Position numbers and translations under genes: made by a program
Assembly (NCBI GenBank): GCA_016866335.1
Contig: VGMT01000006.1
Coordinates: 25,778 to 89,777 of the forward strand
Length of the DNA: 64,000 bases
Source of the DNA: Bacteroidota bacterium
GTDB lineage: Bacteria; Bacteroidota; Bacteroidia; CAIKAF01
Direction: 5' to 3'
The notes under the pieces: generated by a model
The model's database searches: none
The model's input: the letters and a program-made list of their open reading frames with translations, nothing else
Told to the model about the DNA's origin: nothing
Shown: piece after piece, positions 1-62,600 of the stretch
Layout of the letters: every line of letters starts with the position of its first letter
Numbering within the stretch: the stretch's first letter is position 1

Positions 1-810
1 AGCACAGGTAAGGAAGATTTATACGTTATATATAAGGAGGGTAGCATGTGGAAAGGTCCTTCCCGGTTGGGTGGTGTGAACACAGTTGACCGTGAGATTG
101 CCCCTTACTATGATGCCGACCGTCAATTGCTGTTTTTTGCCTCTAATCGTCCTGGTGGAGCTGGTGACCTAGATATTTACATGAGCGCCCGCCAAGGCGA
201 GAGCTGGACAAACTGGTCAGCTGCCCAAGCCTTGCCAGCATCGGTTAATACCGAAAATTTTGATGGTTATTTTTCTGTAAATAAAAACGGCGATGCCTAT
301 TTTGCAAGAAATAAAAAGGGTGGTTTGTCGGATGTGTTTTACACCAAGATGTCGGTTGTGGTTGATGAGCCCGAACCGGAGCCTGTTAAAGAGCCTGAAC
401 CCGACCCGGTTGTGGTTAAGAAGGAGGAGCCTCCTGTGGTAGTTGAAAAACCCAAACCTGTTGTTCCTGCCGAAGTATATGTGGTGCACTTTGCTTTTGA
501 GGGAGTTTCTCCAAAAGAGCAAGAGGTGCTGAACACTGTTGCCAAGGCTTTGAATGAAAACAAGGCAATCAATGTCAAGTTGGTTGGCCACACAGACAAC
601 ATCGGCACATTGGCCATCAATATGAGCTACAGTAAGCGTCGGGCTGAGGTCGTGAAATCAAAATTGATGGGTATGGGTGTTTCGTCCACAAGAATTAGCA
701 CCGATTGGAAAGCCTTTAATGGTCCCGTACAAACCAACGATACTCCTGAGGGTCGCGCGGCCAACCGTAGAACGGAGATTTCGTTCGTACTTTCAGAAAA
801 GGCGAAGTAA
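1..810 (+). CDS. OmpA-family protein, C-terminal part (5' end lies outside the window). It has WD40/TolB-like beta-propeller repeats followed by an OmpA_C peptidoglycan-binding domain; it is a PorE-like paralog.
   Basis: The reading frame is open from base 1 with no upstream stop, so the gene is truncated by the window edge. The motif 'FFASNRPGGAGDLDIY' looks like a TolB-type propeller blade. The C-terminus 'VGHTDNIG...NRRTEI' matches the OmpA_C signature. The architecture matches the C-terminus of the 51694..53961 protein. Confidence 0.7.
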   Translation, partial: STGKEDLYVIYKEGSMWKGPSRLGGVNTVDREIAPYYDADRQLLFFASNRPGGAGDLDIYMSARQGESWTNWSAAQALPASVNTENFDGYFSVNKNGDAYFARNKKGGLSDVFYTKMSVVVDEPEPEPVKEPEPDPVVVKKEEPPVVVEKPKPVVPAEVYVVHFAFEGVSPKEQEVLNTVAKALNENKAINVKLVGHTDNIGTLAINMSYSKRRAEVVKSKLMGMGVSSTRISTDWKAFNGPVQTNDTPEGRAANRRTEISFVLSEKAK

Positions 811-1030: not shown

Positions 1031-1143
1031 AGGGAGATAATTAACGAAATCATGTTTACAAGTTCTTTTATAAAAAATGGTAAATGCCTCCAATAGTCAG
1101 ACCAGCTTCGTTACTTTGTTCTGAAAACCATATTGACCTCACT

Positions 1144-3684
1144 ATGCGCCAATTTCGACATTTATTGCTTGCCTTTATTGCGCCCTTTTTAACTGGGCTT
1201 TCAATTCAAGCCCAAGATTTTTCGGGACTAAGCAGCGGGAACTGGGCTGGAATTCAAAATTTACATGTGAACCCTGCCAATATTGTTGACCACCGTTATG
1301 TGGTTGATGTAAACCTGTTTTCTATGCATTTTAATGTAATGAACGATTACATAGGCATGCGAAAGGACCCTGTTTTGAACCCCAAGCTGTTCAATGAATA
1401 CAATTACAACGATTTTGACTCGCTTTATTTGGTGCGGGACTCCATAGGTAGCAAGCAATTGCTGACCTCTACGCGTTTGCAACTGCCTTCGTTTATGTTT
1501 CAAATTACACCCAAAGACGGGATTGGAATCAGCACGAATTACAGGGTAATGGCCAACATTGGAAGCATTAGCGAGGAGATTGCGCAGCTTGTGAACGCCT
1601 CGGTTCGAAATTCTTTTTCGGCAAGCAGTTTGGGTTCTTTTTCAGAGAATATTGCCGCCTACTTGTTTCAAGGGGCATTGAACAACAACTATACCTTGGA
1701 TTTTGACAATTCATTTGCGAACACCTTGGCGGCAAGCTGGATGGATGTTGGCTTGCATTATGGAAGGGTGGCCATTGACCAGAAACAACATTTTTTGAAG
1801 GCCGGCGTTGCTTTGAAGTTGCTTTTGGGAGTGAATGCTGGATATGGATACATGAATGGGGCGTATGCCCAGTACGATCCTAATTTATCAGAGATTACCT
1901 CTTTGCGCGGCGATTTGATGTATGGGGAAAGCAACAATGCCATAAGTTCGGGAGGCTATAATCCCTTTAATTTTACAGGCTTTGGCATGGGTTTGGATTT
2001 TGGTGTGGTATATGAGTGGAGGCCCAAATACGCGAAGTATCAATACAATATGGATGGGAAAACAGGTTTGTGGCGTAGAGACAAAGAGAAATACACCTTG
2101 AGGGTGGGGTTGGCCCTGAACGATTTTGGTTCGATTCGATTTAACCATACCGATAGCATTCCTTCGTACCGATATTCCATCCTTAATGTAAATAATATTC
2201 CTGTCGGACTGTTCGACAATGTTACCGATTTGCAAGATGCCTTGAATCGATTGGAGGCGGCTTATCCGAATCAAGTTGTTAAAACAGCGGCCCCCGAGAC
2301 CTTTACCGTAGGCTTGCCTGCGACCTTAACCGCCACGGTTGATTGGCAAATTGTGGATCGGTTGTTTTTGAATGTAAGCCCAATAATTGCCCTGACCAAC
2401 AATGGGTATGGCAATTTCAATTTGCACAACATGAGTTCAATTACGGGCGTGATACGGTATGAAATGCCCTGGTTTGGGGCGTATTTGCCTATGAGTTGGA
2501 ATCCGCTAACCCAATTTAATGCCGGTTTGGCTTTGCGCATGGGGCCATTGTTTGTTGGCAGTGGTTCTGTATTGTCTTGGTTGTTTAAAGACTACAGCAC
2601 GGGAGTGGATTTTTATTTTGGTGTGAAAGTGCCGATACCGCATTTGGCTCCGCGCGATCGAGACAACGACCAGGTGTCGGACCGGAAGGATAATTGTCCT
2701 GACAAGCCAGGAGTTTGGGAGTTTAAAGGTTGTCCGGACAGCGATGGAGATGGAATTCCCGATGCACTGGATGAGTGTCCGTTTGAGGCAGGTGTGCGCG
2801 CCTTCAAGGGCTGTCCAGATACAGATGGTGATGGGGTGAAGGATGCCGACGACGAGTGTCCGAATGAAGCGGGTCCTTCTGCCTTGAAAGGATGTCCAGA
2901 TAAAGATGGAGATGGAGTAGCCGACCGCAACGATGTTTGTCCGGACCAGAAAGGTCTTGCCCAATTCAAAGGTTGTCCAGATACCGATAACGACAGCATC
3001 CAAGATTCAGAAGATGCATGTCCGGAGTTGGCTGGGCCCCGCGAAAACCAGGGATGTCCAGACAGCGATGGAGACGGGGTTTTTGATAATGTTGACAAGT
3101 GTCCTACCGTTGCTGGATTGAGGGAATTGGAGGGCTGTCCGTATGCCGATACCGATGGCGACGGAATTAAAGACAAGGACGATAAGTGTCCGAATGAGAA
3201 AGGTCCGGCAGAGAACAACGGTTGTCCGTATTCCGATACCGACGGCGACGGCATTATTGACATTGAAGACAAATGCCCTAACACGCCTGGCATTAAGGAA
3301 AAAGACGGTTGTCCTCCGATTTCAAAAGAAGATCAGGATATTTTGAATAAGGCGTTTGATAACTTGGAATTTGAAACAGGAAAAGCGGTCATACGGAGTA
3401 GTTCCAATGCATCGCTGGATGAATTGGCCGATTTATTCAAAGCCAAGCCGAAGTTTATGCTGTTGATTGAAGGGCATACCGACAATGTGGGAAGCCGCAG
3501 CAGCAACTTGACCTTGTCGAAAAACAGGTCGGCAGCAGTGAAGCTTTACATGCAGAAAAAGGGAATTGAGGGAAGCCGATTGATCGTGATGTTCTATGGG
3601 CCCGACAAGCCAATTGCCGACAACGCAACCGAAGAGGGGCGTCAGAAGAACCGTAGGGTAGAGATGACGGTGATTTTTGAGTAA
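1144..3684 (+). CDS. OmpA-family outer-membrane protein. It has an N-terminal ~500-aa domain of unknown type, about eight thrombospondin type-3-like calcium-binding repeats, and a C-terminal OmpA_C domain.
   Basis: It starts with a signal peptide 'MRQFRHLLLAFIAPFLTGLSIQAQ'. Repeats of the form 'CPDSDGDGIPDALDECP' are TSP3-like. The C-terminus 'IEGHTDNVGS...NRRVEM' is OmpA_C-like. Confidence 0.75.
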   Translation: MRQFRHLLLAFIAPFLTGLSIQAQDFSGLSSGNWAGIQNLHVNPANIVDHRYVVDVNLFSMHFNVMNDYIGMRKDPVLNPKLFNEYNYNDFDSLYLVRDSIGSKQLLTSTRLQLPSFMFQITPKDGIGISTNYRVMANIGSISEEIAQLVNASVRNSFSASSLGSFSENIAAYLFQGALNNNYTLDFDNSFANTLAASWMDVGLHYGRVAIDQKQHFLKAGVALKLLLGVNAGYGYMNGAYAQYDPNLSEITSLRGDLMYGESNNAISSGGYNPFNFTGFGMGLDFGVVYEWRPKYAKYQYNMDGKTGLWRRDKEKYTLRVGLALNDFGSIRFNHTDSIPSYRYSILNVNNIPVGLFDNVTDLQDALNRLEAAYPNQVVKTAAPETFTVGLPATLTATVDWQIVDRLFLNVSPIIALTNNGYGNFNLHNMSSITGVIRYEMPWFGAYLPMSWNPLTQFNAGLALRMGPLFVGSGSVLSWLFKDYSTGVDFYFGVKVPIPHLAPRDRDNDQVSDRKDNCPDKPGVWEFKGCPDSDGDGIPDALDECPFEAGVRAFKGCPDTDGDGVKDADDECPNEAGPSALKGCPDKDGDGVADRNDVCPDQKGLAQFKGCPDTDNDSIQDSEDACPELAGPRENQGCPDSDGDGVFDNVDKCPTVAGLRELEGCPYADTDGDGIKDKDDKCPNEKGPAENNGCPYSDTDGDGIIDIEDKCPNTPGIKEKDGCPPISKEDQDILNKAFDNLEFETGKAVIRSSSNASLDELADLFKAKPKFMLLIEGHTDNVGSRSSNLTLSKNRSAAVKLYMQKKGIEGSRLIVMFYGPDKPIADNATEEGRQKNRRVEMTVIFE

Positions 3685-4167: not shown

Positions 4168-4175
4168 CACATATC

Positions 4176-5357: not shown

Positions 5358-5390
5358 GGTATTTTGATTTTAGGGGTTAGGCAATGGGAA

Positions 5391-5552: not shown

Positions 5553-5585
5553 GGTATTTTGTATTTAGGGGTTAGACAATGGGAA

Positions 5586-12164: not shown

Positions 12165-12322
12165 TTTTTTTGGGGGCGGCAGCCGGGCTTTCAGGGGTAG
12201 TCCGCTGTTGCCGGGGGCTGCCCCAGCGGGCTTACGGGGGCTCCTGAAGTCGCCGCCGCGCCGCGCGGGCCAGGCCCCGCCAACATTTGGGCTACCCGCC
12301 TCAATCCCTGCCGCGGGCCTCT
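12165..12322 (+). repeat. GC-rich dispersed repeat, copy B (forward)
   Basis: It reads 'ttttttgggggcggcagccgggctttcaggggtagtccgc...caatccctgccgcgggcc'. Confidence 0.8.
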
Positions 12323-19677: not shown

Positions 19678-19832
19678 CGTTTTTTTGGGCGGTTGCGGGC
19701 TTTCACCGGTAGTCCGCGGCTGCCAAAGGCTGGCCCAGCGGGCTTGCGGTGGCTCCTAAAGTCGTCTCCGCGCCACGCGGGCCAGACTTCGGCAGCCTTG
19801 CGGGCAACCAGGTTCAATCCCTACCGCAGCCC
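19678..19832 (+). repeat. GC-rich dispersed repeat, copy C (forward)
   Basis: It reads 'ttttttgggcggttgcgggctttcaccggtagtccgcgg...ggttcaatccctaccgcagcc'. Confidence 0.8.
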
Positions 19833-19868
19833 AAGGCTTGGGAATCGCCTGTTTTTTATTGACTGTTT

Positions 19869-28823: not shown

Positions 28824-28837
28824 GGAATTGATGCGCC

Positions 28838-28990
28838 TGCGGGCGGGATTGAACGCGGTAGCACGCCAAGCCACAGGCAGCAGGGGCATGCGGGCTGCGG
28901 AGGCGACTTTAGGAGCCCCCGCAAAGCCGACATGCCCCCTGACTGTGGCTGCGGCCTACCGGTGAAAGCCCGAAACCCGCCCGAAAAACT
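28838..28990 (-). repeat. GC-rich dispersed repeat, copy D (reverse)
   Basis: It reads 'gcgggcgggattgaacgcggtagc...cggtgaaagcccgaaacccgccc'. Confidence 0.8.
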
Positions 28991-38273: not shown

Positions 38274-38421
38274 TCGAATTTATTTTTGGAAAGTTACGGA
38301 AGTTTTTGGGCTTTGCCTGCTACGGGGAACCTTGATTTTAATTTGGAGGCTAAAATCCCTTAATTTAGACGAAACAGGAATGGGCTAGGCTAGGGGTTGG
38401 CTTTCAGTTTTGATGATTCAA

Positions 38422-38573
38422 ATGGGGGCGGCTGCCGGGCTTTCCGGGCTACTCCGCGGTTGCCAAAGGCCTGGCCCAGCTGGTTTGCGGGGGCTCCTAA
38501 CGTCGCCTCCGCACCTAGCGGGCCAGGCTTCGGCACCCTTGCGGGGTAGCCTCGTCAATCCCTGCCGCTGGCC
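38422..38573 (+). repeat. GC-rich dispersed repeat, copy E (forward). This copy was used as the representative.
   Basis: It reads 'gggggcggctgccgggctttccgggctactccgcggttgcc...cttgcggggtagcctcgtcaatccctgccgctggcc'. Confidence 0.85.
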
Positions 38574-44001: not shown

Positions 44002-44150
44002 GGCGCGGCAGGGATTGACGAGGCTACCCCGCAAGGGCCGAAACGGCAGCCGGCCCTTGACCGGCAGAGCGACCTTGGGAGCTACTGACGGGCGCGGGCT
44101 GGCCCGGTTTCGGGCCGCGGAGTAGCCCGGAAAGCCCGGCTGCCGCCCTA
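44002..44150 (-). repeat. GC-rich dispersed repeat, copy F (reverse)
   Basis: It reads 'ggcgcggcagggattgacgaggctaccccgcaaggg...ggagtagcccggaaagcccggctgccgccc'. Confidence 0.8.
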
Positions 44151-44258
44151 ATTTATTAACCTACAAAAATGAGCATTATGTTTTACGTAAACTCGTAAGA
44201 TGCTGCCCATGCAGCGCGTCTATTTCCTACCTTTATAATCGGAAATTAAAATTCTTTT

Positions 44259-48892: not shown

Positions 48893-49678
48893 CTATTTTT
48901 TAACGGGATTGGAATGCCATTTATAGGTATCTTTTTGCTTGTCAACGAAAAAAACCTGTTGTTCTGGGTTTCTTTTTTTTACCTCGACAGGCCTAGAAGG
49001 GTTGGTAAAAAACTCGATTTCCTGGTCTTCGTTTTGCAGCAAGACCCCCGTTGCTCGACGGTGCAATTCGGTGGTTTCTGAAAAAACCCCCATTCGATGA
49101 ACCGAAATGAGGCCTCCAAAAATATCCCAAATTGAAATGCAACCTGTTGTACTTACTAGGTAAAGCCGATTTTGGTGTTCCATCATCCAGGCAATTTCCG
49201 CTTGGGGGTCTTGAGTCAACCGATGAAGGTTTGGCACTTTAAACTCCACTTTTAGATGCTGGTTTAGGCGAATTAAGGTCATATCTTGCCCCGTAACCAC
49301 CCACAGCCCGTTGTCGTAGCCGCTGCTCACAACGCTGGCTTGTTCCAATTGCATGTCCATTAAATTAATGGCTGTGCTTAAGGCTGCCCCTCGGTTATCT
49401 ACCCACAATAGTTGGCTTTGGTCCTTAAAAAAAACAAGCACCTTCAGTGGATTGTACAGGTCAATGGAATGGATATTTCCCGTTTGCAAAAAACTTTGGT
49501 CAAAAAACAAGGTGTCGTTTTGGTGCACCCTTAAGACTTGTTCACTCCACACCCAAAGCGTTTTTCCCGGGTCAATTTGGTGGCCTTTGATTCCGGCCAG
49601 GTAGCCCTGCCCTGTTTGATTCCAAAGCAAGGAAGTAAACCCCAGCAATACAATGCAACAGGCTATTGGCCTGCGCAT
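48893..49678 (-). CDS. Hypothetical secreted protein
   Basis: It has a signal peptide and no recognisable motif. Confidence 0.45.
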   Translation of the reverse strand: MRRPIACCIVLLGFTSLLWNQTGQGYLAGIKGHQIDPGKTLWVWSEQVLRVHQNDTLFFDQSFLQTGNIHSIDLYNPLKVLVFFKDQSQLLWVDNRGAALSTAINLMDMQLEQASVVSSGYDNGLWVVTGQDMTLIRLNQHLKVEFKVPNLHRLTQDPQAEIAWMMEHQNRLYLVSTTGCISIWDIFGGLISVHRMGVFSETTELHRRATGVLLQNEDQEIEFFTNPSRPVEVKKRNPEQQVFFVDKQKDTYKWHSNPVKK

Positions 49679-51213
49679 GTTCTAAGGGCTTGCAGTTGTT
49701 CAATCCAAATTCGGTCGTTTGACAACCTCGGCACTTTGTGTTGGGCTCCGGTTTTACCCCGGGAACTCATCCAGCGGTAAAACAACCCCTTTTCAACGGC
49801 ATGGATTTGGGGTAGGCCCATGGCAAAATTGCCGGTTCGTTTTGCGTCGTAATCGGCATTCACTTTGCGCAGTTCTGAGTCCAAACGCTCTGCGAAATCA
49901 GGCAGGTTGCCGGGTGCTTCTTCAAATTCAATGAGCCATTCGTGGCCGCCCGGCTGATGAGCAGATTGGAAAATGGGGGCAACGGTAAATTCCCGTATGC
50001 TCGCATGGCATTGCTGGCAAGCTATAGCCAAGGCCGTTTCTGCATTTTCAACCATAAGCTCTTCTCCAAAGGCGTTGATAAAATGTTTGGTTCGACCAAC
50101 AATCCGAAGGCGGTAGGGGCGCAAGGAGGTAAATTCGACCGTATCGCCAATCAGGTACCGCCACAATCCTGCATTGGTGGTTATTACCAAAGCATAGGCC
50201 TTGCCCAACTCAACAGATTCTAAGGGTAGGGCGTGTTCCTCAGGCTGATCCAACTTGTTTAGGGGCACAAATTCGTAGTACACCCCATAGTCGGTCATAA
50301 GCAACATGTCGTTTTTATTTTCCCGGTCTTGCAAGGCAAAGAACCCTTCAGAAGCGTTGTAGGTTTCTAGGTAATGGATTTCGTTTCCTGCCGAAAGGTT
50401 TTGATAAAGAGGTCGGTAGGGGGCAAAGTTGACCGCACCATGAATAAAGAGCTGCAAATTGGGCCAAACTTCGCGCAGTTGGGTTTTTCCTTCCAATTCC
50501 AAAACCCGCTTCAGCAGCACCAGCATCCAAGATGGGACTCCCGATAAAAATGTAATGTCTTCTGGAATAATCGCTTCTGCCAAGCGGTCCAGTTTTTCTT
50601 CCCAGTTGCCCATCAAAGCTATTTCTTTGGAAGGAGCGCGAAAATAATGCATCCACCAAGGCATGTTTTCGAGCAGTACAGCCGAAATGTCGCCGGCTTG
50701 GAAGGGCGAATCGGCCGCGGTATGAAGGCTGCCTGAAAGCACCAAGGATTTTCCTTCAAACAAGGTGTGTTCCGGTTGCCAGGCGTTGTAGCAGGTAAGT
50801 ACATCGCGGCCCCCTTTGTAGTGGCATTCGTCCAACGATTCTTTGGTAACGGGAATAAACTTGCTGCGGTCGTTGGTGGTTCCGCTTGATTTGGCAAACC
50901 AACGTATGGAGCCTGGCCACAACACGTTTCGTTCACCATTCAAACTTCGTTCAATGTAGGGGAAAATGGATTCGTAGCTCCGAATGGGAACCCTATTTCG
51001 AAATTGGTCGTAATCTCGAATGTTTTCAAACATATGGTCCGCACCAAAAAGGGTTTCGCGGCCTTTGCTTAAAAGAGTTTGTAGGGTTTCTGCTTGAAGC
51101 TGTTCTGATTTTTCGGCCGTTTGCTGCAACCTATCCATTCGGGAATCTAGATAGGCTTTAACCATGGCATTGATTACAGACACGGGCAGTTGGTTTTGCC
51201 CAAAGTTAAACAA
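49663..51213 (-). CDS. GH3-family (auxin-responsive-like) adenylating protein
   Basis: It has 'FAKSSGTTNDRSKFIP' and 'YETYNASEGFFA'. Confidence 0.7.
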   Translation of the reverse strand: MFNFGQNQLPVSVINAMVKAYLDSRMDRLQQTAEKSEQLQAETLQTLLSKGRETLFGADHMFENIRDYDQFRNRVPIRSYESIFPYIERSLNGERNVLWPGSIRWFAKSSGTTNDRSKFIPVTKESLDECHYKGGRDVLTCYNAWQPEHTLFEGKSLVLSGSLHTAADSPFQAGDISAVLLENMPWWMHYFRAPSKEIALMGNWEEKLDRLAEAIIPEDITFLSGVPSWMLVLLKRVLELEGKTQLREVWPNLQLFIHGAVNFAPYRPLYQNLSAGNEIHYLETYNASEGFFALQDRENKNDMLLMTDYGVYYEFVPLNKLDQPEEHALPLESVELGKAYALVITTNAGLWRYLIGDTVEFTSLRPYRLRIVGRTKHFINAFGEELMVENAETALAIACQQCHASIREFTVAPIFQSAHQPGGHEWLIEFEEAPGNLPDFAERLDSELRKVNADYDAKRTGNFAMGLPQIHAVEKGLFYRWMSSRGKTGAQHKVPRLSNDRIWIEQLQALRTCAGQ

Positions 51214-51287
51214 ACTTTGAAAAGCGAAAGGGTTAGCACCCTACATGGTTTTGAATCAACAACAAACAGGAACGAAACCAAGGGGCT

Positions 51288-51435
51288 TGGGCCCCGGATT
51301 GAAGCGGCAGTACGCGCGGCAGGGGCGCCGCTAAGTGGGCAGGCGGAGGCGACCTTGGGAGCCCTACGCACTGCCATACTTAGCCCGCCCCTGCGAGCGG
51401 ACTAAAGCTGAAAGCCGGAAAGGCCCCCAAAAAAA
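51288..51435 (-). repeat. GC-rich dispersed repeat, copy G (reverse; the most diverged copy)
   Basis: It reads 'gggccccggattgaagcggcagtacgc...gcggactaaagctgaaagccggaaaggccccc'. Confidence 0.65.
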
Positions 51436-51439
51436 GAAT

Positions 51440-51646
51440 TCAATCCTTTCCCTCTTTGTCTGAAGCCGGGTCAGCCTCTCCGTTTTGGTCGGTCGACTTT
51501 TCGTATTTTGGTTCCTGACCAGGACTGGGAATAGTGGCTCCGTGGTCCGTATAGCGAACGGAATAGCCGGCATCCTTAGAGCCTTTGCATGAAACTAGGC
51601 TTAGGGAAAAAACAAGGGATGCAGCGAACAAAAGACGATTTTTCAT
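51440..51646 (-). CDS. Small lipoprotein (68 aa)
   Basis: It has a lipobox 'SLVSC' followed by a polar tail. Confidence 0.35.
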   Translation of the reverse strand: MKNRLLFAASLVFSLSLVSCKGSKDAGYSVRYTDHGATIPSPGQEPKYEKSTDQNGEADPASDKEGKD

Positions 51647-51693
51647 TTGAAACAAAGATAAGTTGGTCAAAGATAATTAATGGCCAGCATGGA

Positions 51694-53961
51694 TTAATTC
51701 ATTTTTAAAATAACAAATTCGGTTCGCCGATTCAACGCATTTTCCTGTTCAGAACAACGGTATTTGTAATCATCACCGCAACCGCAGTACGCTTGTGGTT
51801 TGTATTCACCATATCCTTTAGGCTGAATTCTCTTGGCCGAGATGCCCTTTTTTTGCATGTAAGCGGCTGCTGATTTTGCCCTTTTAATGCTTAAAGTCTG
51901 GTTGGCCGCTGCGGGACCTTGGCAATCGGTGTGCGAAGCCAGCTCCATGCTCATACCTGGAAATTCATTCAACACCCCAATGATTTTGTCAAGTTCTGTG
52001 GCTGCCTGAGCTGTAATGGCGGCCGAGCCTACCTCAAAGAAAATGGGTTTGATTTCGATGATGGCACCAATGTCGGCCCCTACCTCCAAGCGTCCCATTG
52101 ATACGTCCGATAACTCATGCAATTTTAGCGGATCTTTGTCTTTAATGATGTGGTTGAACGCCACTTGCTTCGAAATATACCCCAATTTTTCTAGGCGAAT
52201 GTCCCACTTTAGGGTATCGAACAAGGTTTGATTGTTCACAATTTGATTGTGGGTTCCGGTAGAAGTGGTCGTCATGGATGCAATGGGTTGACCTGTGCTT
52301 CGTTCCACAATCGTCATTTTAACTCCAGGCAAAGGAAGGCCACTGCGTTTGTCTTTAATGGTGCAAATAATGGGTATGTCTAGGTCTTTTTTAAGAGCAT
52401 GCTTTAAATCCAATTCAGGCATGCCACCTTGGGTTGACACTTCTTGCACCAATGTTTGATAATTGGGCTCGCTGATTTCGGCCGAGTACACATTGCCAAT
52501 CGTTAAGTGCGCTGTGTACAGTCCGTCTGCGTCGCTAAGAACTTCGGCCACCTTATGCCCTTTTTCGTTTACAATGCGAATTAAGGCATTGGGAATTCGG
52601 TTGTGTTGAAATGCGTCAACCACCACCCCTTTAATTTCAACGATGGGCTGAATGGGTTGCAAGGCGCGGACGTGGTAAAGGTCGTCGTTTCCTTTGCCAC
52701 CGGGCCGATTTGAACTTAGGTAGCCTTCGCTGATGGCTTCGTTAAAAACCAGGGCAAAATCGTCGCTGGCCGAATTGTAACCGGGGCCCAAATGAATGGG
52801 TTGGTCAGAATTCAGACCATTGTTTACCGCCACAAAAACGTCCAAGCCCCCCAAACCCGGGTGGCCATCGCTGGCAAAGAAAAGAAGCCCTGAGGAATGG
52901 AAAAAAGGGAAGGTTTCGCGGCCGGGAGTATTGATGCCAGGGCCAGCATTAACCGGGGGTAGCCAGTTTCCGTCAATGTCGCGTTGGCTTACATACAAAT
53001 CAGATTGCCCAAAGCCGCCAGGCATGTCGCTTACAAAATACAACCGTTGACCATCGGGACTAAGGCAGGGGTTTGCCACGTTGTAGTCGACGTGGTTGAA
53101 TGGGAATTTACGGGGCTGCCGCCATTTTTCGTCGTCGGTTTGTGGAGAAAGCCAAATTTCTAGAACCCTTCCTTGTTCTTGGTTAAGCCGTTTTTCATCT
53201 CGGTAGCTGTTTCGGGTAAAAGCCATGAGTTTACCGTTGGCCTGGAAACTAGCCGGACCTTCGTGGTAGCGTCGGTTTAAGCCAGATTCAACCTTCAATG
53301 CCGCAACCCGTTTTAACCTGCCCGAATTTGAAGCGTGGGGTTGAGCCGAATACAGGTTTAAGAATCCCAATTGATTCCAGGCATACTCGTGCCGAATGGG
53401 GGTATGCCCCGACCGGGTGCTGGCAAACACAATTTTGTCGCCCCAATAAGCTGCCCCAAAGTCGCTTTCCTTCGAATTGATGTTTAGGTTGGTTAGTTCG
53501 ACCATTTTCTCTTGGCCTAAAATTTTAGAATGCCAATCTGGGTTAGATTGGTAGGCCGCTATTCGTGCATCGGTGTTTCCAGTTGCATCGGTGGCTGTGG
53601 CTTGAGCAAACAAGGCCTGGGCCTCGGAATAATTCCCCTGCTGCATTAAGGATTGGGCTGCAGGAATCTGGGCCTCTGCCGGCAAATTAAACCGCCCCTG
53701 CAAATCCTTAAAAACCAAAGAAGCTTTTTCGGGTTGGTGGGTTGCAAGGTAGCATTCACCTAGGCGCTGCAGCACATAGGCGTCTTTTTTCTTGTTGGGA
53801 ACCGATTTGTAGGCTCGAATGGCTTCGGGATAGCGCAGGGCTTCCGCGTGCTTGTCGGCCCGTCGAACGGCAGGGTGTTGCCCAAATGCGGTACCCAAGC
53901 CCCCTAAAAGTAGGGCAAGAAGTGCGGGAGCAACGAATAGTGTGCGTTGGCTGTGCTTCAT
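51694..53961 (-). CDS. PorE-like T9SS-associated OmpA-family protein, with TPR, TolB-like beta-propeller, carboxypeptidase-regulatory-like and OmpA_C domains
   Basis: It has a signal peptide. The N-terminal stretch 'EALRYPEAIRAYK...LGECYLATHQPEKA' is TPR-like. 'FASTRSG', 'FVSDMPGGFGQSDLY' and 'SSNRPGGKGNDDLY' are propeller blades. It ends with the OmpA_C signature 'SHTDCQG...NRRTEF'. This four-domain order matches PorE of Porphyromonas. Confidence 0.7.
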   Translation of the reverse strand: MKHSQRTLFVAPALLALLLGGLGTAFGQHPAVRRADKHAEALRYPEAIRAYKSVPNKKKDAYVLQRLGECYLATHQPEKASLVFKDLQGRFNLPAEAQIPAAQSLMQQGNYSEAQALFAQATATDATGNTDARIAAYQSNPDWHSKILGQEKMVELTNLNINSKESDFGAAYWGDKIVFASTRSGHTPIRHEYAWNQLGFLNLYSAQPHASNSGRLKRVAALKVESGLNRRYHEGPASFQANGKLMAFTRNSYRDEKRLNQEQGRVLEIWLSPQTDDEKWRQPRKFPFNHVDYNVANPCLSPDGQRLYFVSDMPGGFGQSDLYVSQRDIDGNWLPPVNAGPGINTPGRETFPFFHSSGLLFFASDGHPGLGGLDVFVAVNNGLNSDQPIHLGPGYNSASDDFALVFNEAISEGYLSSNRPGGKGNDDLYHVRALQPIQPIVEIKGVVVDAFQHNRIPNALIRIVNEKGHKVAEVLSDADGLYTAHLTIGNVYSAEISEPNYQTLVQEVSTQGGMPELDLKHALKKDLDIPIICTIKDKRSGLPLPGVKMTIVERSTGQPIASMTTTSTGTHNQIVNNQTLFDTLKWDIRLEKLGYISKQVAFNHIIKDKDPLKLHELSDVSMGRLEVGADIGAIIEIKPIFFEVGSAAITAQAATELDKIIGVLNEFPGMSMELASHTDCQGPAAANQTLSIKRAKSAAAYMQKKGISAKRIQPKGYGEYKPQAYCGCGDDYKYRCSEQENALNRRTEFVILKMN

Positions 53962-53967
53962 ACCGAA

Positions 53968-54903
53968 TTAAAAATAGCGGGGACTAACCACCTTGTTTTT
54001 GTTTTTGAAATTGAAATCGTAACGAACCATAAGTTCATGGCTGCCAAATTGCCGAATTTGAGCTACGGAATTAAGCGGCCAGTCAAAAGAATAACCAATG
54101 CGCAGTGAAGGAGTTACATACACGCCCAACAGCGGCCCCACTGCAGATTCATGCCGATAAAATCCGCCAACACTGACGCGTTCTGCAAAAACCATTTCCA
54201 ACGAACCTTCCACTTGAAGTGGTGCACCCATAGCCAATTTAATTTGAGTGGCAGGTTTTAAATCAAAACCTGGCCGCACAGGTATGTATCCCCCAGCAAT
54301 CAAGTAAAAATGCCTTGCCTGTTGGGTTGAACTACCGTTAAAGCTGTTTTCCAAAATCCTTGGCATGCTTATTCCTACGTAAGCATTCGTATGGTCGTAA
54401 TAAACACCAAATCCGGCGTTGGGCATGGTGTTCGATAAATCAGTACCAAAAACGGGGTCGCCCGGTTGATCTATGTTCAAGTTGGTCAGATTGTTGTTCA
54501 GAAAATCCATGCCCCCCTTCAAGCCAAATGCCAAGCGATGGCTTTTTCCTAATTCCAGGCGATAGGTAACATTAAGGGCCGCGGCGGTATGAACGGTTGG
54601 CCCCAGCCGGTCATGCACCACATCCAAACCCAATGAAAGGCCTTTGGCAACAGGACTGTGAATTTGTGCGGTATGAGTCATCGGAGCTCCATCAAAGCCA
54701 ACCCATTGCAAACGGCCTAAGGCCAAAACGCTCAGCGCATCGCGGCTGCCGGCATAAGCTGGATTTACACTCAAGGTGTTGTACATGTAATGGGTGTACA
54801 GCGGATCTTGCTGGGCCTTTGCCGTTCCAGCTAAGCCGAACAGAAACAAGGCCAACTGCAAAATGGCAAAAACACAAAAAGAGAATGGATTGTGCTGGCG
54901 CAT
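53968..54903 (-). CDS. Type IX secretion system membrane protein PorP/SprF
   Basis: It has a signal peptide followed by 'QQDPLYTHYMYNTLSVNPAYAGS', and ends with '...HELMVRYDF', the family signature. Confidence 0.85.
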   Translation of the reverse strand: MRQHNPFSFCVFAILQLALFLFGLAGTAKAQQDPLYTHYMYNTLSVNPAYAGSRDALSVLALGRLQWVGFDGAPMTHTAQIHSPVAKGLSLGLDVVHDRLGPTVHTAAALNVTYRLELGKSHRLAFGLKGGMDFLNNNLTNLNIDQPGDPVFGTDLSNTMPNAGFGVYYDHTNAYVGISMPRILENSFNGSSTQQARHFYLIAGGYIPVRPGFDLKPATQIKLAMGAPLQVEGSLEMVFAERVSVGGFYRHESAVGPLLGVYVTPSLRIGYSFDWPLNSVAQIRQFGSHELMVRYDFNFKNKNKVVSPRYF

Positions 54904-54907
54904 GAGC

Positions 54908-56068
54908 TTAACGGTTCAGGTAAATGTATCCGGTCAAGGGGGCGGTTCCGTTGCCCAAATCAAGAATATAGTAATACGTGCCGGTAGGCAGTTCTTCGCC
55001 CAAGGGCAGGGTTCCTTGAACAGCGGTTCCAGCCCAATCGTTTAAATACGGCGCAGCTTCAAGGACCAAGGCTCCCCAACGGGTGTAAATTTTCAAGGAA
55101 TGGTTCGGGAATTCCATTAATCCCTGAATCACGTACAGGTCATTGTAGCCATCTGCGTTCGGCGAAAAGGCTTGGGGAACATTAAAAATATTCGGGCAAC
55201 TCGGATCCATGGGTTTGGGTTCACATGGATTTAAAGGGTCCGATCCCAACGCAAGTTCTTGTCCGTTCAACGTGGAATCGGCATCGCAGTCCAATTGATT
55301 CCAGGCCGATGTCGGGGGAAGGGTTTGCGATGCAAGCACAAAACTGCAGGGGTCAAGGGGGTTGCTGCCGTCGGCCTGTTCTTGCCCGTCGATTACTCCA
55401 TCTCCATCGCTGTCTGGATTTTGTGGATCGGTTCCTATTCCTATTTCAACTCCGTTGGTTAAGCCGTCCGAATCGCAGTCCAACTGCATCCACGCTAGAG
55501 CGGGGGCCAGAATGTTCTGGTGCACAACCAGGTAAGAACAAGGGTTTAGCGGATTGGTAGCGTCGTTCATTTCGGTGCCATCCACCACCCCGTCTCCGTC
55601 GGTGTCGGGATTTAACAGCAGGGTCCCCGCCGCCAACTCTTCTCCATTGGTTAGCCAATCTCCATCGCAATCCAAATCGAACCAGGCGGAACTGGGAGTT
55701 AAACTTTGACTCATTAATTCGAACGAGCAGGGTTTCAAGGGGTCCGAAAAATCCGTGATTTCAACCCCGTCGGGCACTCCGTCTCCGTCGGTATCTGGAT
55801 TCAATGGGTGCGTGCCCAGCTGCAGTTCCTGCAGGTTGGTCAATCCGTCGTTGTCGCAATCCAACACATTCCAAGTGGCCGAGGTTGTTTCTGTTTGATT
55901 GGCTAAAACAAAAGAGCAAGGGTCGTTGGGGTTGGTTCCATCGGCAACCTCTACCGAATCTACCACTCCGTCGCCGTCGGCATCAAAAGCCATGGGCGCA
56001 TCAAAAGCCGAAGCATGCAATGGCAGTGCCGAAAAAACTAAAAGCAGCAAGGCGATTCGCAGGTGCAT
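54908..56068 (-). CDS. T9SS cargo protein with five TSP3-like calcium-binding repeats and a type-B (gliding-motility-associated) C-terminal sorting domain
   Basis: It has a signal peptide 'MHLRIALLLLVFSALPLHASA'. There are five ~75-aa repeats of the form 'DCD.DGLTN..EL..GT.PL.PDTDGDGV.DG.E..D...PL.PCSF'. The C-terminus is '...PNADGYNDLYVIQGL...YTRWGALV...GTYYYIL'. Confidence 0.7.
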   Translation of the reverse strand: MHLRIALLLLVFSALPLHASAFDAPMAFDADGDGVVDSVEVADGTNPNDPCSFVLANQTETTSATWNVLDCDNDGLTNLQELQLGTHPLNPDTDGDGVPDGVEITDFSDPLKPCSFELMSQSLTPSSAWFDLDCDGDWLTNGEELAAGTLLLNPDTDGDGVVDGTEMNDATNPLNPCSYLVVHQNILAPALAWMQLDCDSDGLTNGVEIGIGTDPQNPDSDGDGVIDGQEQADGSNPLDPCSFVLASQTLPPTSAWNQLDCDADSTLNGQELALGSDPLNPCEPKPMDPSCPNIFNVPQAFSPNADGYNDLYVIQGLMEFPNHSLKIYTRWGALVLEAAPYLNDWAGTAVQGTLPLGEELPTGTYYYILDLGNGTAPLTGYIYLNR

Positions 56069-56298
56069 CGAACCGGAAAAGCCTTTAAACCGCAACAAAA
56101 CAGCGAAAAGGCCAACGTTGGATTTGGTGAACATAATACCATTCAGGCATTTAAGTGCCTATGCAAATAAAGTGATAAATTTAATTTTTACCGCCATTCT
56201 GCAAAAGATTAACAGACAAACAATTCCAATTTCTTGCATGCAATTGCATTAAAAACAGGTTAAATTTAAGCTGAACAAGGTAGTTTTGAATCTTGTTT

Positions 56299-56452
56299 TT
56301 ATTTGGGGCGGCTGCGGGCTTTCAGCGCTAGTCCGCAGCCGTTTGCCTGTTGCAGCGGGGGTAAAAGTAGCTCCTGAAGTCGCTCTTTTCCCCCTGCTGC
56401 AGGTCGGGCAATCGGCTTTGCGGGCAAGCGGCTTCAATCCCTGCCGCGGCAC
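56299..56452 (+). repeat. GC-rich dispersed repeat, copy H (forward)
   Basis: It reads 'ttggggcggctgcgggctttcagcgctagtccgcagcc...cggcttcaatccctgccgcggcaccc'. Confidence 0.75.
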
Positions 56453-56624
56453 CCCACTGTTTCTTAAATCTTCCTCTTTAACAGAAAGTTAAGCATAGGT
56501 TAACCGATTGGGTAAAACCGAAATTTCTTTCCTTATGCAACGTTAAAATTATTTTGAATGGAGGTGGTCGCAAAGAAAAAATTTTACCTTTAGCCTCATA
56601 GTTATAACTTTAAAGTATTCGCTG

Positions 56625-59600
56625 ATGTTCAAACACGTACTTCACCAAATCGGACGATTGAGCTTTTTAGCCTTTATTGGCTGGGCTTCAATCGCGCATT
56701 CCAATGCCCAATGTGTAAATCCTGCGACCCCAACAGCGGCTGTTCAGGCGGCCAATTGCGGCCAAACAGCCACCTTAACCGCCAGTGGCTCCACAGGGAA
56801 TTATACCTGGTATAATGTTCCTATCGGCGGTACGGCTCTAGCCCAAGGAAACACGTTCACTACTCCCGTTTTGTATGGCACTACTACCTATTATGTGGCT
56901 GCTTACCAATCGGGCAACCCTTCTTGCTTAAGCTCTCGGGTTGCGTTGATTGTTAGCCCAACTCCTTTGGCCTCGCCATCGGTTCAAGGAGCCACTGTAA
57001 CCTGCGGATCCTCCGCTACCATTTATGCTGCCGGCTCTACCGGCAACTACTTTTGGTATGCTGGCCCCAGCGGTGGTCCTGTATTAGCAACGGGCGGTTC
57101 GTTTACCGCTTCGGTTACCCAAACAACTATTTTTTATGTAGAAGCGGCCAGTACGGCCAATCCCATTCAGACTGCTACCTTTAATTATACAGGAGGTCAA
57201 CAAAACTGGACCGTTCCTGCGGGTGTTTTTAGCATCGATTTCGATGTGCGCGGCGCTCAGGGAGGAACAAATGCATGGAACAACGGCGGAACCGGCGGTC
57301 GAGTTACTGGTAAATTGGCCGTTACCCCTGGCCAAACCATTTACTTTTATGTTGGCCAACAACCTGGAAGCGGCGGATGTTGCAACTACATTTCAGCTCC
57401 CGGTGGCTGGAATGGAGGCGGAGCAGGTTACTCCTATTATAATGGCGACCAAGCCCGTGGCGGTGGTGGCGCTTCCGATATTCGTGTGGGTGGAACAGGT
57501 ACCAACAACCGCGTTGTGGTGGCTGGTGGCGGTGGCGGTGCCGGTGGTCAAGCCTGCAACGGAAACCAAGATAGGGGAGGAAACGGTGGCGGTTTAACCG
57601 GCCAGTCAGGATGGCGCTGCAGCAGCAATGACCTTTGCTACGTAGGCTCGGGTGGTTCACAAAGCGCAGGTGGCCAGGGTGCCCAGTGCGGAAGCGGACA
57701 AAACGGTTCCTTGGCTCAAGGCGGTAACGCTTGGGGTGCATACCAAAATTACTGCTGCCCTTATCCCGCTGGCGGTGGTGGCGGTGGTTACTACGGCGGC
57801 GGCGGCGGTTACAACTACGGCGGTGGCGGTGGTGGATCTAGCTATGCAAACCCCAACAGCACCAACAGCGTGGCCCACGTTCAAGGATTTCAATCAGGAC
57901 ACGGTCAAATTATTATCAATTATATTACTCCTTACTGCGTTAGCGCCCGCGTACCTGTGCAGGTCGCTACCACTCCCATTCCAAACCCAACAGTGGCTGC
58001 TGCCAACTTAACCTGCGGCGATACAGCTTTGTTGCAAGCAACCGGTACCGGTTTCTTTAATTGGTACAGCGCTTCAACCGGCGGAACCCTTTTGCAAGGC
58101 AACTCAGCCAACTACAGCATTCCTTTCGTTACCGATAGCATGACCGTTTGGGTAGAAGCTCTTTCAACGGCCAACCCAAGTGGTTCGGTTAACTTTTCTT
58201 ACACCGGCGGAACCCAAACTTGGGTCGTTCCTGCGGGCGTTTATTCAGTGGTGGTTGACGCTAAAGGAGCACAGGGCGGAACCCCAAGTTGCAACAGCGG
58301 TTCAACCGGCGGCAATGGGGGGCGTGTGCAAGCTACTTTAGCCGTTACACCTGGGCAAACCCTGTACATCAATGTGGGTGGAACAACAACCACCCCTAAT
58401 GCCGGCTGGAACGGCGGAGGTCAAGGCGGTACAGTATCTTGCAACAGCATCTGCCAAAGTGCTGGTGGTGGTGGCGGAACCGATTTGCGCGCCGGTGGTC
58501 AAACGCTGAACAACCGCGTTCTTGTTGCCGGCGGCGGCGGCGGCGGCGGTTCATGGTGCAACAGCGAGCGTGGTGGCGCTGGCGGTGGAACAACAGGCCA
58601 ACAAGGCTACCGTTGCAACAGCCAAGACTGCTACACAGGTACTGGCGGTTCTCAAACCGCAGGAGGCCAAGCTGGAAACTGCTGCAACACAGGTCAAAAC
58701 GGAGCCTTCGGAATTGGTGGCGATGCCTATCAGTGTGCTTATGCCGGCGGTGGCGGCGGTGGTTGGTATGGTGGCGGCGGTGGTACCGGTTGCTGGAGCG
58801 GCGGCGGCGGCGGCGGCGGCTCATCGTACGCCGATCCTAACCTTTGCTCTAATGTAACCCACAATCAAGGAACTCAAACTGGAAATGGAGAACTTAGCCT
58901 TTCATACACGGTACCCTATTGCCAAAGCCAAAGGGTGGCTGTAAACGTAAATGTGAATCCACTTACAGCTCCAACCAATGTTATCGGAGATAGCGTACTT
59001 TGCGGACAAACGGCTGTGGTTTCTGCTACTCCAGCCAATACTCCCGTTCATTGGTATCCCGACCTTACCAACAATACTCCTATTGCCATTGGTTCAAGCG
59101 TGTTCCTGCCTGCCATGTATGGCTCTGATACCTTGTATGCAACTTCAGCAAGAACCAATACGCTTTCAGGTACGCACACGTTTTCGTACACGGGTGCAGT
59201 TCAAACCTGGACAGTACCCGCAGGAATCACTTCGGTTTCTGTTGATATGTCAGGCGCAGAAGGTGGAGCTGCAGTATCGAACCCTTCTCAAAACTTAGGG
59301 GGAAAAGGTGGTCGGGTTCAAACAACCCTTTCAGTAACCCCAGGTCAATTGCTTTATATTTACGTGGGTGAAAAACCCAGCGCCACCACAGGTGGGTGGA
59401 ACGGCGGCGGCAACGGCGGCGGCAACAGCGGCGGCGGCGGCGGCGGTACCGACATTCGTTTGGGCGGCCAAAACTTCTCAGATCGAATTTTAAGTGCTGG
59501 TGCAGGCGGTGGTGCCGGTTGGGCTTGCGGCAACAACGACTATGGTGGAGATGGCGGCGGCAACGGAAATGCGGCAAACGGAATTCGCTGCGGACAGCAA

Positions 59601-62600
59601 AACAATTGCCATTGTGGTTTTGGAGCTTCCCCAACTGCCGGAGGCCAGGCTTCTCAGTGCGGTTGCAACAACCAAAGCGAATACGGTTCTTTAGGTAAAG
59701 GTGGAAATTTTGATAACTGCTACGCAAACGGCGGCGGCGGCGGCGGCGGTCATTATGGCGGCGGCGGCGGCGGGGACGGCGGCGGCGGCGGCGGTTCTAG
59801 TTTCGCTAACCAACAACTAACCTCCAACACCGTTCATACCCAAGGCTACAGAACCGGGCATGGCGAAGTTGTAATTTCGTACAACACTACACTTATCTGT
59901 CAAAGCGCGCGCATACCTGCAGTTGTTCACATCGATTCACTTCCTGCTCCAACAGTGAGTGCGGGCGTTCTATTCTGCGATCAAGGAAGCACCACATTCA
60001 ATGTAAGCGGCGGACCAAATACAGATTACCGCTGGTTCGATGGATTTAGTGGAAGTTTGGTTGGTTTGGGTACCTCGTACACCACTCCAGTTTTAACCCA
60101 AACCGATACCCTGTTCGTATTGTATATGCAGAACGGTTGCCCTTCAAAATACGACATGGGCATTGTAACCATTGTGCCAACTCCACGGGTGGATGTACTG
60201 CCAATGGGGCCCTTCTGCAGCAGCGATGCGCCCATCAACGGAACGCTAGGGTTGGTATACAACACAGGTACAATGACCTTTACCAATGCAGGAAAAACCG
60301 GGCAAAATGGACCAACGCAGTTGGATGCCGACAATGCCTATGGCCCTGGGGTGGTAAATGTGGTAAGCGGTATTCAACAATGGACCGTGCCTGTAACCGG
60401 CAGCTACACCATCGAGGCATTTGGAGCCAGCGGCGGCGATGTTAACTCAAGCAATTTAGGCGGACTTGGCGCTCGTATGCGTGGAAATTTCCAGCTGCAA
60501 GCAGGCCAAACTCTTAATATGATGGTAGGGCAAATGGGCTCTTCACCCTCTGACCAACAATACCATGGTGGTGGCGGTGGTGGTGGAACGTTCGTTACCG
60601 TTGGAAACTTCCCTGCGACTGCGAACCCATTAATCGCAGCTGGCGGCGGCGGCGGCGGAACGGCCTATTACCAAAACGTAAACCAACCTGGCAATGGTGG
60701 TCAAACCACCAACAACGGCGACAACGGAGGTAATCCTGGAGATTACTGCGACAGCGGCGGTGGTGGTTTTGATGGTAACTCCACCTGCAACGGCAATGCC
60801 AAGTCCTATAAGAATGGTGGCAAAGGCGGCCAAAGTAACTATGCCGGACACGGAGGCTTTGGCGGCGGTGGAGCTTCAATACACCACCCCGGCGGCGGCG
60901 GCGGCGGCTACGAAGGCGGTCAAGGTGGATTTAACCACAGCTCAAACACTGCCCGTGGAGGTGGTTCCTACAACATCGGTACCAACCAAAGCAATACCGC
61001 CAATGCCAACCTTGGCCATGGTCGGGTTGTAATTACTGGCCCAATGACCTCTCAGCCTTCTACCAGTGGAGGAGTGTGGACCGGCACAGGTGTGGTAGAT
61101 AGCGTTTTGGGAACCTTTGACCCAGGTCAAGCCCAAATTGGAAACAACACCTTTGTTTACAGCGTCAACAACAGCGGTTGCATCGGTGCCGATTCGGTAA
61201 CCATCAATGTGATTCAAGGACCCGATGCTACCATAACTACACCCGCAGCTACCTATTGCGATTACGATGCTCAAGACACCTTAGTAGCATTGAATCCAAA
61301 TGGTACGTGGTCTGGAACAGGCATTACAGGAAACAACACCCAAGCTTATTTTACCCCTTCTGCCAACGGTGCCGGCACCTACTATGCCAAATACACCATT
61401 GTAGATAATGCCTCTGGTTGTACCGACCGCGACAGCGTTATGCTGCTGGTGAATCCAAGCCCCAACGCTGGACTTCTTTCGCCCAGTTTGTTGTGCTCTA
61501 ACGGAGCTCCAACCAACCTGCAGCCGCAAACTCCCGGCGGTACATTTAGCGGTAACGGTATTGTGAATGCTCAGTTGGGAACGTTTGACCCCACAAACAA
61601 CGTGGTAGGAAGCAGCCAAGTGTATTATACCGTAACCGTGAACAACTGTACAGCCAACGATAGCCTAACCGTGGTGGTGAATCAAGCTCCCAATGCGAGC
61701 TTCGTGAACCCTCCCGCTCAGGTCTGCGAACAAGGCAACACCGTTTACTTGGCTAACGTTAGTCCTGGTGGCTTCTGGGCCGGAAATGGAATTTCCAACC
61801 AAATGTCAAGCGCCTTTACTCCTTCTATTGCTGGTCAAGGTATGGCAACAGTTACTTACCAGGTTTCCAACCAGTATTGCACCGACTACGATACGGCTTT
61901 CATCTTTGTTTTTGGAAACCCAACCGTTACCCTTGCCGGTTCTAATAACCAGGTGTTGTGTGCCAACAGCAACTTGGTGCTGAATGCTTCTGGAGCCAGC
62001 GTTTACAACTGGTACAACAATGGCAACCTAATCAATGGTGCATTTGGTCCTACGTACACCGTTACGACTCCAGGTACCTATTCTGTTAAAGGAACCAACA
62101 TCAACGGTTGCCCAGACTTCTCGCAAGACGTTGTGGTTACGGCCGGAGCTCAACCCATTATTTACCAAATCAACGTGCCTACTGTATGCGAAGGCAATCC
62201 GACCACATTTACCCAGACTTCAGCTCCGGGCAATGGCAATACCTTGGTTTCATTTAACTGGAACTTTGGTAATGGAAACAACGGGACAGGCTTTACCGCC
62301 TCTGAAACCTATGCTCAGCCTGGAACCTACAATGCCATGTTGACTGTAACCAACACCGATGGCTGTTCCGACAGCATGATGCAAGTGGTTCAAGTTTGGG
62401 CCAAGCCTTTAATTGACTCCATTATGGCGGTCAACAACTGTTACCCTAGCCCAACTACCTTGAACTCCTATGTTTCTGGCCCCTCTATCGCGTCTTGGAA
62501 CTGGAGCATCAGTGGGCAGAACCCGGCCCTTGGTCCTTCGCCTGTAATCAACTTCCCAAGCCAGGGTACCTTCAATTATATTTTGACGGTAACCAGCACC

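Follow-up and report, generated by a model that had tools for sequence, protein, structure and literature searches.

Results

Three adjacent genes at 51694..56134

The 64,000-nucleotide stretch of a Bacteroidota bacterium genome analysed here (contig VGMT01000006.1; hereafter the window) carries on its minus strand, at 51694..56134, three open reading frames (ORFs) whose products of 408, 311 and 755 aa are a type IX secretion system (T9SS) cargo whose C-terminal domain (CTD) is of type B, an outer-membrane barrel of the PorP/SprF family and a PorE-like protein. The genes are co-oriented and follow one another in the order cargo, PorP/SprF, PorE-like, with intergenic gaps of 4 bp and 6 bp, so that they form the run of three adjacent genes by which type-B cargo/PorP-like/PorE-like operons are recognized. 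A first-pass annotation of the same DNA had proposed this succession, and profile hidden Markov model (HMM) searches agree with it: the type-B CTD, PorP_SprF and OmpA families are all matched, far above chance, the CTD does score as type B, and propeller and OmpA_C domain are both found in the 755-aa protein. Co-transcription of the three genes is likely, given the narrow gaps and the conserved order described below.

54908..56134, minus strand: cargo gene, 408-aa precursor, stop codon included
56006..56134, minus strand: N-terminal signal region of the cargo (aa 1-43, ...LPLHASA/FDAP), read from the sequence
55232..55990, minus strand: four tandem 63-aa repeats of the cargo (aa 49-301), direct repeats spaced 189/192/189 nt (families D14 and D17)
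54911..55183, minus strand: type-B C-terminal sorting domain of the cargo (aa 318-408); CHU_C, TIGR04131, beta-sandwich in the model
53968..54903, minus strand: PorP/SprF outer-membrane barrel gene, 311 aa, starting 4 bp past the cargo stop
51694..53961, minus strand: PorE-like gene, 755 aa, starting 6 bp past the PorP stop
51697..52074, minus strand: OmpA_C peptidoglycan-binding domain of the PorE-like protein; best PDB sequence match 6TOP (PorE C-terminal domain), E 1.3e-13

The cargo precursor is most likely 408 aa long, since its start at 56134 (MF...) is kept in four orthologues whereas the internal Met that gave the 386 aa first assigned to it is not. Its signal would be cleaved after ...LPLHASA. 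In an AlphaFold (AF2) model built from 24 homologues the signal region comprises a hydrophobic helix (aa 24-35) and a remainder of low pLDDT, while the model as a whole has a pLDDT of 82.6, with values above 90 over the repeats and a terminal beta-sandwich. The predicted type-B CTD is present as a C-terminal domain of the expected size (~85 aa) that scores above curated thresholds, matching PF13585 CHU_C with 83 bits (cut-off 27; aa 318-406) and TIGR04131 with 51.4 bits (cut-off 35) over aa 318-408 of 408, that is, at the very C-terminus. In a Foldseek search of the PDB with the cargo model it resembles the CTD of NucA as seen in the translocon of the T9SS (8GLK_D, TMt 0.73), whereas the repeat region had no match at E<=0.001.

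The body of the cargo matches PF18884 TSP3_bac in seven stretches (E 1.3e-36) and is made of four 63-aa units, not of the five repeats originally counted. Every unit holds two TSP3-like loops, DxDGDGxxDxxE and LDCDxDGLTNxxE, together with two Cys. The repeat is multicopy in the cargos of related triads (1248 bits for the repeat region against the cargo of locus L010), and a database search for the cargo family retrieved 1442 relatives at E<=1e-8, many of them with cadherin-like or Ig-like domains and named merely 'gliding motility-associated C-terminal domain-containing protein'. At the loci with the closest PorE-like genes (L007-L028), 14 of 19 cargos are rich in TSP3-like motifs, as against about 4 of 45 at the remaining loci; the PorE-like proteins nearest to the 755-aa one thus tend to accompany TSP3-repeat cargos, which range from ~400 to >2300 aa, the largest being at least 2300 aa, a lower bound since they run off the locus edges. 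Within its family, which elsewhere is made up of very large proteins, the cargo is a small, repeat-only version, and it may serve as a calcium-stiffened surface stalk or adhesin. A literature search for TSP3 or thrombospondin repeats together with T9SS yielded nothing relevant.

That the gene after the cargo encodes a PorP/SprF protein, as had been proposed, is clear from full-length matches to PF11751 (225.9 bits) and TIGR03519 (profile 4-292 of 292), the latter at 223.7 bits, above the curated cut-off of 90.55. The barrel is presumably the cognate shuttle or anchor of the cargo.

The 755-aa protein consists of a signal peptide, TPR/helical repeats (aa 30-148), a beta-propeller (154-433), two beta-sandwiches (440-523 and 527-605) and an OmpA_C domain (630-754). 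Pfam matches are to OmpA (64.5 bits), PD40 (52.4 bits), CarboxypepD_reg (47 bits) and several TPR families; an AF2 model (pLDDT 82.4) places two consecutive prealbumin/CRD-like beta-sandwiches between propeller and OmpA_C, the second of which has weak Transthyretin/CarboxypepD_reg matches by sequence. Domain-wise Foldseek searches, which retrieved tandem beta-sandwich proteins, propellers, 5WTL/5WTP and 6TOP, agree with this layout. The order TPR, beta-propeller, CRD, OmpA_C that characterizes PorE, and that the first-pass annotation had read here, is therefore borne out by HMM and model alike, while its count of four domains is not: there are five, the extra one being a beta-sandwich. Within OmpA_C, D679 and N687 are invariant in 23 homologues and align with Asp576 and Asn584 of PorE, both reported to be necessary for peptidoglycan binding and function (PMC12773672); judging from the alignment to 6TOP, the peptidoglycan-binding residues of PorE appear to be retained.

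More than 3000 database relatives of the 755-aa protein were found at E<=1e-10, mostly 720-760 aa long and annotated just as OmpA family protein; the closest among named ones, from a Flavobacteriales metagenome-assembled genome (MAG), is 79% identical. Ten homologues from other genomes score 314-418 bits against NF052230, the T9SS_PorE model. The idea that homologues standing alone are true orthologues of PorE or of CHU_0125 was rejected, since all ten homologues checked (five alone, five in triads) fall under the cut-offs of both models.

Conservation of the gene order across Bacteroidota

Our survey comprised 80 loci from species-representative genomes across Bacteroidota, picked from an alignment of 23 PorE-like relatives; their ORFs were searched with profiles iterated from the PorP and CTD sequences of the window, and 77 loci had usable upstream sequence. 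A PorP/SprF gene stands co-oriented and directly upstream of the PorE-like gene in 67 of the 77 (~87%), at a median gap of 14 bp, and 59 of those 67 (59/77 for the full order) also have a type-B-CTD gene before PorP, at a median gap of 27 bp. Comparative genomics thus confirms that PorE-like genes keep company with sprF-like genes. Close relatives, whose PorE-like proteins are 79-88% identical to the one here, retain the whole triad, with cargos of 401-450 aa. JGI, ENA and Logan metagenomes were the source of these contigs and of the two longer ones described below.

At one surveyed locus, in a Flavobacteriales MAG (L045, 6948-15634), two triads lie in tandem within ~9 kb: the first set is a PorP–PorE-like pair for which the window-derived profile detected no type-B cargo, and the second has cargo, PorP and PorE-like gene all in place, its PorE-like protein being shorter, at 554 aa.

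A second, divergent triad at the window start

1..810, plus strand: short PorE-like gene, 3' part (270 codons), frame 1 open from the edge; PD40 and OmpA

A second PorE-like paralogue, with propeller and OmpA_C tail, had been recognized at the start of the window, and the PD40 and OmpA matches uphold it: 1..810 encodes propeller blades, a Pro/Glu/Lys-rich linker and OmpA_C. Two longer contigs of this organism (L087 and L088), found via the neighbouring gene for an 866-aa protein and 100% identical over window 1..810, supply the full-length product, a protein of 448 aa with signal peptide, beta-propeller, Pro/Glu/Lys-rich linker and OmpA_C. Having neither TPR nor CRD, it departs from the domain order of PorE, and it scores 93.9 bits against NF052230. 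Its gene overlaps by 7 bp a second PorP/SprF gene that lies off the left edge (TIGR03519, 209.5 bits), upstream of which is a second cargo of 350 aa with an SprB repeat and a type-B CTD (TIGR04131, 72.1 bits). With its own barrel and type-B cargo before it on these contigs, the gene at 1..810 therefore ends a second complete cargo–PorP–PorE-like triad.

Identity between the two triads is 43% for the CTDs, 24% for the barrels and ~30% for the propeller blades and OmpA_C, which by sequence comparison marks them as old paralogues. In Flavobacterium johnsoniae a foreign CTD of 68% identity was accepted by a shuttle and one of 43% apparently was not (PMC12618676), so that separate cognate pairs would be expected here. 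The short form is the rarer one, with ~30 clusters of similar length as against thousands for the long form, and three of four distant homologues checked are likewise preceded by genes for a CHU_C cargo and a PorP/SprF protein.

The 866-aa TSP3/OmpA_C protein

1084..3684, plus strand: gene for an 866-aa protein with DUF5723, TSP_3 and OmpA, directly after the second triad

The TSP3-rich OmpA_C protein that was expected after the truncated gene does follow it, at 1084..3684 where 1144..3684 had first been given. Its repeats belong to PF02412 TSP_3 and form nine or so 27-aa units at 81-nt spacing (family D9), so that family and unit both differ from those of the cargo (PF18884 in a 63-aa unit). 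The last 262 residues, comprising TSP3 repeats and OmpA_C, align end to end with 5WTL (E 7.5e-80), a structure whose entry describes it as the periplasmic portion of OmpA from Capnocytophaga gingivalis, and the TSP3 repeats of the 866-aa protein should therefore be periplasmic. The likeness to C. gingivalis OmpA (5WTL/5WTP) is thus one of this neighbour's C-terminal 262 aa and not of the triad, and the DUF5723 N-terminal region distinguishes the 866-aa protein from that OmpA.

A reading of the DUF5723 region as a PorP-like barrel, which would have made the protein a PorP and PorE fusion, was rejected on an hhalign comparison of a 70-sequence PorP profile with a single-sequence template (probability 0.2%); no DUF5723 homologue was found in the 80 related loci. 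Against the model of Myxococcus TraB the 866-aa protein scores 231 bits, far under the cut-off of 700.

Transcription signals, flanking elements and neighbouring genes

A sigma-70-type scan of 51100..56700, which was not modelled on Bacteroidota promoters, gave 3 promoter-like sites against 5.8 expected by shuffle; terminator-like sites numbered 12 against 8.6 expected, again no excess. The Bacteroidota -7 motif TAnnTTTG has no exact match on the minus strand at 56135-56300, upstream of the cargo, and with 51 occurrences against 53 expected it shows no enrichment over the entire window.

51440..51646, minus strand: gene for a 68-aa lipoprotein with lipobox LVSC (MKNRLLFAASLVFSLSLVSCKG...), 47 bp downstream of the PorE-like stop
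876-1031 (minus strand, approximate), 12168-12320 (plus), 19679-19834 (plus) and 28837-28989 (minus): hairpin repeat, copies 1-4
38420-38573 (plus strand), 44004-44154 (minus), 51285-51435 (minus) and 56298-56450 (plus): hairpin repeat, copies 5-8

The 68-aa lipoprotein, which has no family match, is 75-79% identical in two relatives, with the lipobox conserved. The space between the PorE-like stop and the lipoprotein gene contains two TATCTTTG motifs; this gene may have a promoter of its own and is possibly a clade-specific fourth gene. As a general fourth member of the module it was rejected: it occurs in close relatives only and was absent from the 77 distant loci by ORF/lipobox scan and tblastn.

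Eight copies of a dispersed, GC-rich intergenic repeat of ~150 nt are spread over the 64 kb. They fold as one long imperfect hairpin; the RNAalifold structure has 52 pairs, of which 35 show compensatory double changes. Conserved motifs are GGGCGGC..CGGGCTTTCA, an apical GCTCCTAAAGTCGC and TCAATCCCTGCCGC, and one side carries a T-run. The triad lies between two of the copies, which occupy the same flanks in three relatives (L089, L090 and L092). No copy was found in the 80 distant loci, and Rfam gave no match at the gathering threshold or at E<=1. In character the repeat resembles either a structured RNA or an element of the REPIN/MITE type; the possibility that TTCAATCCC is a tRNA-like T-arm was rejected, as the pairing does not fit.

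Divergent from the triad, at 56625-63401 on the plus strand, lies the gene for a 2258-aa protein with three glycine-rich ALK_LTK_GRD-type regions, Ig_7 and PKD (precomputed Pfam matches). Its T9SS sorting domain is of type A (TIGR04183, 36.1 bits, cut-off 23), so that type-A and type-B cargos neighbour each other, and in close relatives it stays beside the triad at lengths of 2005-2259 aa. On L088 (5701-9727, up to window position 810) the second triad comes after the gene for a PKD protein of 192 aa that bears a type-A sorting domain; a small type-A cargo thus sits directly upstream of a type-B triad there as well. Downstream of the block, at 49663-51213 on the minus strand, and separated from the triad by a copy of the hairpin repeat, is a GH3-family gene that scores 434 bits against the OlsH (lyso-ornithine lipid synthetase) model, whose cut-off is 620. 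Beyond the 866-aa gene, a tmRNA gene at 3803-4170 on the plus strand (tag ADNNNYALAA) is followed by two tandem-repeat arrays, one at 4282-4537 with three overlapping copies of a 70-nt unit and one at 5196-5780 with three copies of a 195-nt unit at 83-100% identity; these arrays hold small ORFs, which in L087 are called on the opposite strand (three 53-aa ORFs).

Discussion

Product identity, gene order, spacing and the conservation of that order are established here for the block at 51694..56134. On this basis we consider it probable that the three genes form an operon serving a single T9SS surface protein, which is anchored statically. We favour this reading because the CTD and the PorP/SprF protein score above curated cut-offs, because the PorE-like protein has the domain order of PorE and a 6TOP-like OmpA_C with the critical residues kept, and because the order is retained in 67 of 77 loci (59 with a type-B cargo in place) and the whole triad in close relatives, in line with what has been published on homologues. 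In the mechanism that we propose, the cargo, with its four putatively calcium-binding TSP3-type repeats and type-B CTD, would be moved across the inner membrane by Sec and across the outer one by the T9SS translocon; its CTD would be collected by the neighbour-encoded PorP/SprF-like barrel, to which it would remain bound on the cell surface. The PorE-like protein in turn would hold the barrel from the periplasmic side with its beta-propeller and bind peptidoglycan with its OmpA_C domain, fixing the cargo–barrel pair to the cell wall instead of letting it travel on the gliding track. The second, divergent triad, which runs off the left of the window, may do the same for its SprB-repeat cargo through a shorter PorE-like protein of propeller and OmpA_C.

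This mechanism draws on what has been published on homologues. In Porphyromonas gingivalis PorP is bound by PG1035, a type-B protein, and itself binds PorE, the three forming a complex, and PorP-like proteins have been proposed as anchors of their type-B cargos (PMC9143113). This system, in which PorE attaches to peptidoglycan through its OmpA_C (PMC9143113), resembles the triad here in joining a type-B CTD protein, a PorP and an OmpA_C-bearing partner, and P. gingivalis PorE shares with the 755-aa protein the order of TPR, propeller, CRD and OmpA_C and the Asp/Asn residues. It differs in that PorE is a lipoprotein and a core T9SS part needed for gingipain secretion, whereas the 755-aa protein lacks a lipobox, has an extra sandwich, reaches half the NF052230 cut-off and has at least one paralogue beside it in the genome, either of them going with a cargo of its own. 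Within PorE, the WD40 domain is implicated in PorP binding and OmpA_C is essential, whereas the CRD is dispensable (PMC12773672); the short propeller and OmpA_C variant at the window start fits these data, since it keeps exactly the two domains marked as important.

The closest counterpart is in F. johnsoniae, where type-B CTDs need a cognate SprF-like shuttle for secretion (PMC12618676). Two papers count there, in one case, five operons of cargo, shuttle and PorE homologue and, in the other, six porP-like genes beside porE-like genes (PMC9143113, PMC12618676). Secretion of Fjoh_3952, which is seen as static foci, depends on Fjoh_3951, and anchoring of this cargo via Fjoh_3951 and the PorE-like Fjoh_3950 has been proposed (PMC12618676); this set has the same order, orientation and CTD family as the triad here, with static anchoring to the cell wall as the proposed outcome. 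Seven Flavobacterium loci in our survey keep the same order (L062, L073, L076, L077, L079, L084 and L086). Their cargos lack TSP3 motifs, whereas the cargo here is small and made of TSP3 repeats only, and their PorE-like proteins are shorter, ~635-668 aa (666 aa at L062) as against 755 aa with two beta-sandwiches. The SprB–SprF pair of F. johnsoniae likewise has a type-B cargo with its cognate PorP/SprF partner immediately downstream. There, however, no PorE-like gene follows sprF and SprB is mobile and huge (PMC9143113, PMC12618676), whereas here a PorE-like gene follows and the cargo is of 408 aa.

Several observations weigh against a statically anchored cargo. The 755-aa protein reaches 305.4 bits against NF052230 T9SS_PorE (cut-off 600) and 345.2 bits against NF053607 CHU_0125_OmpA (cut-off 620); since it lies under both equivalog cut-offs, 'PorE-like' is the right label, and CHU_0125, which is named as an outer-membrane-integrity protein, scores slightly above PorE. 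Its N-terminus (MKHSQRTLFVAPALLALLLGGLGTAFGQ) contains no Cys and so, as read from the sequence, no lipobox, unlike P. gingivalis PorE; most homologues are also without this Cys, and a few have GCS. The PorE-like gene stands alone, with no PorP neighbour, in 10 of the 77 loci, and the cargo has no recognizable binding or catalytic domain. Co-transcription and complex formation are, for this organism, what we infer, and in the literature the static-anchor role of PorE-like partners is still a proposal. Some of these points would suit a protein that is a general outer-membrane–peptidoglycan tether of the CHU_0125 type, merely co-expressed with cargo and PorP and conferring no cargo-specific anchoring: NF053607 is its best NCBIfam model, with a match that covers the TPR, propeller and first CRD region, is well under the cut-off and is split into two stretches around the extra domain; 10 of the 77 homologous loci lack PorP, and homologues in and out of triads score alike on both models. 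We nevertheless regard such a tether as unlikely. A general tether would give no reason to keep PorP/SprF immediately upstream in so many loci, across many families and at so short a gap. This genome, moreover, has two PorE-like architectures, each behind its own cargo/PorP pair, and PorP and PorE are physically linked in published data (PMC9143113, PMC12773672).

It is less likely again that the cargo is a mobile, SprB-like gliding adhesin passed by its PorP-like partner to the gliding track, a role to which the 'gliding motility-associated' database name of its homologues, the SprB repeat of the second cargo and the use by SprB of the same CTD type and an SprF partner (PMC12618676) might point. 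The database name reflects the CTD family only. The mobile type-B cargos of F. johnsoniae, namely SprB together with Fjoh_4750 and Fjoh_1123, have no PorE-like gene encoded with them, whereas Fjoh_3952, which has one, gives static foci (PMC12618676), and at the locus here the cargo/PorP pair runs straight into a PorE-like gene that keeps the residues for peptidoglycan binding. Most improbable of all seems the suggestion of the first-pass annotation that cargo and 866-aa protein together form a shared calcium-dependent surface structure. Both proteins do have Asp-rich TSP3-type motifs, and the 866-aa gene comes directly after the second triad, yet the repeat families and unit lengths differ and the two genes lie ~51 kb apart. 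As the cargo is exported to the surface and the match to 5WTL puts the 866-aa repeats in the periplasm, the outer membrane should separate the repeats of one protein from those of the other. The DUF5723 region, in addition, gave no sign of kinship with PorP in the hhalign comparison and is without a homologue in the surveyed loci. We found nothing that links the two proteins beyond the common calcium-binding motif.

With static anchoring as the preferred reading, the two triads lend themselves to a wider and more tentative one, which we think somewhat short of an even chance. PorE-like anchors may be dedicated, modular paralogues that occur in a long and a natural minimal form, each hard-wired to its own barrel and cargo, the long form being built of TPR, propeller, two sandwiches and OmpA_C and the minimal form of propeller, flexible Pro/Glu/Lys linker and OmpA_C. 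The length of linker or sandwiches would then set the distance from barrel to wall, and the giant TSP3 cargos of the most closely related triads would have in the 408-aa cargo a 'headless' counterpart with four repeats. If this is true, the short form shows in nature that propeller and OmpA_C are the functional core, as the deletion work in P. gingivalis suggests.

The arrangement itself has already been published (PMC9143113, PMC12618676) and the locus is one more example of a known operon type; it is therefore not a discovery, and as an instance from an uncultured freshwater Flavobacteriales-like bacterium it carries little weight as one. The value of the survey is modest and lies in the order kept in ~87% of informative loci, in the rarer short form that occupies the same position and in the association with TSP3-repeat cargos, points that could help in choosing constructs for testing how PorE-like proteins may statically anchor type-B cargos to the cell wall.

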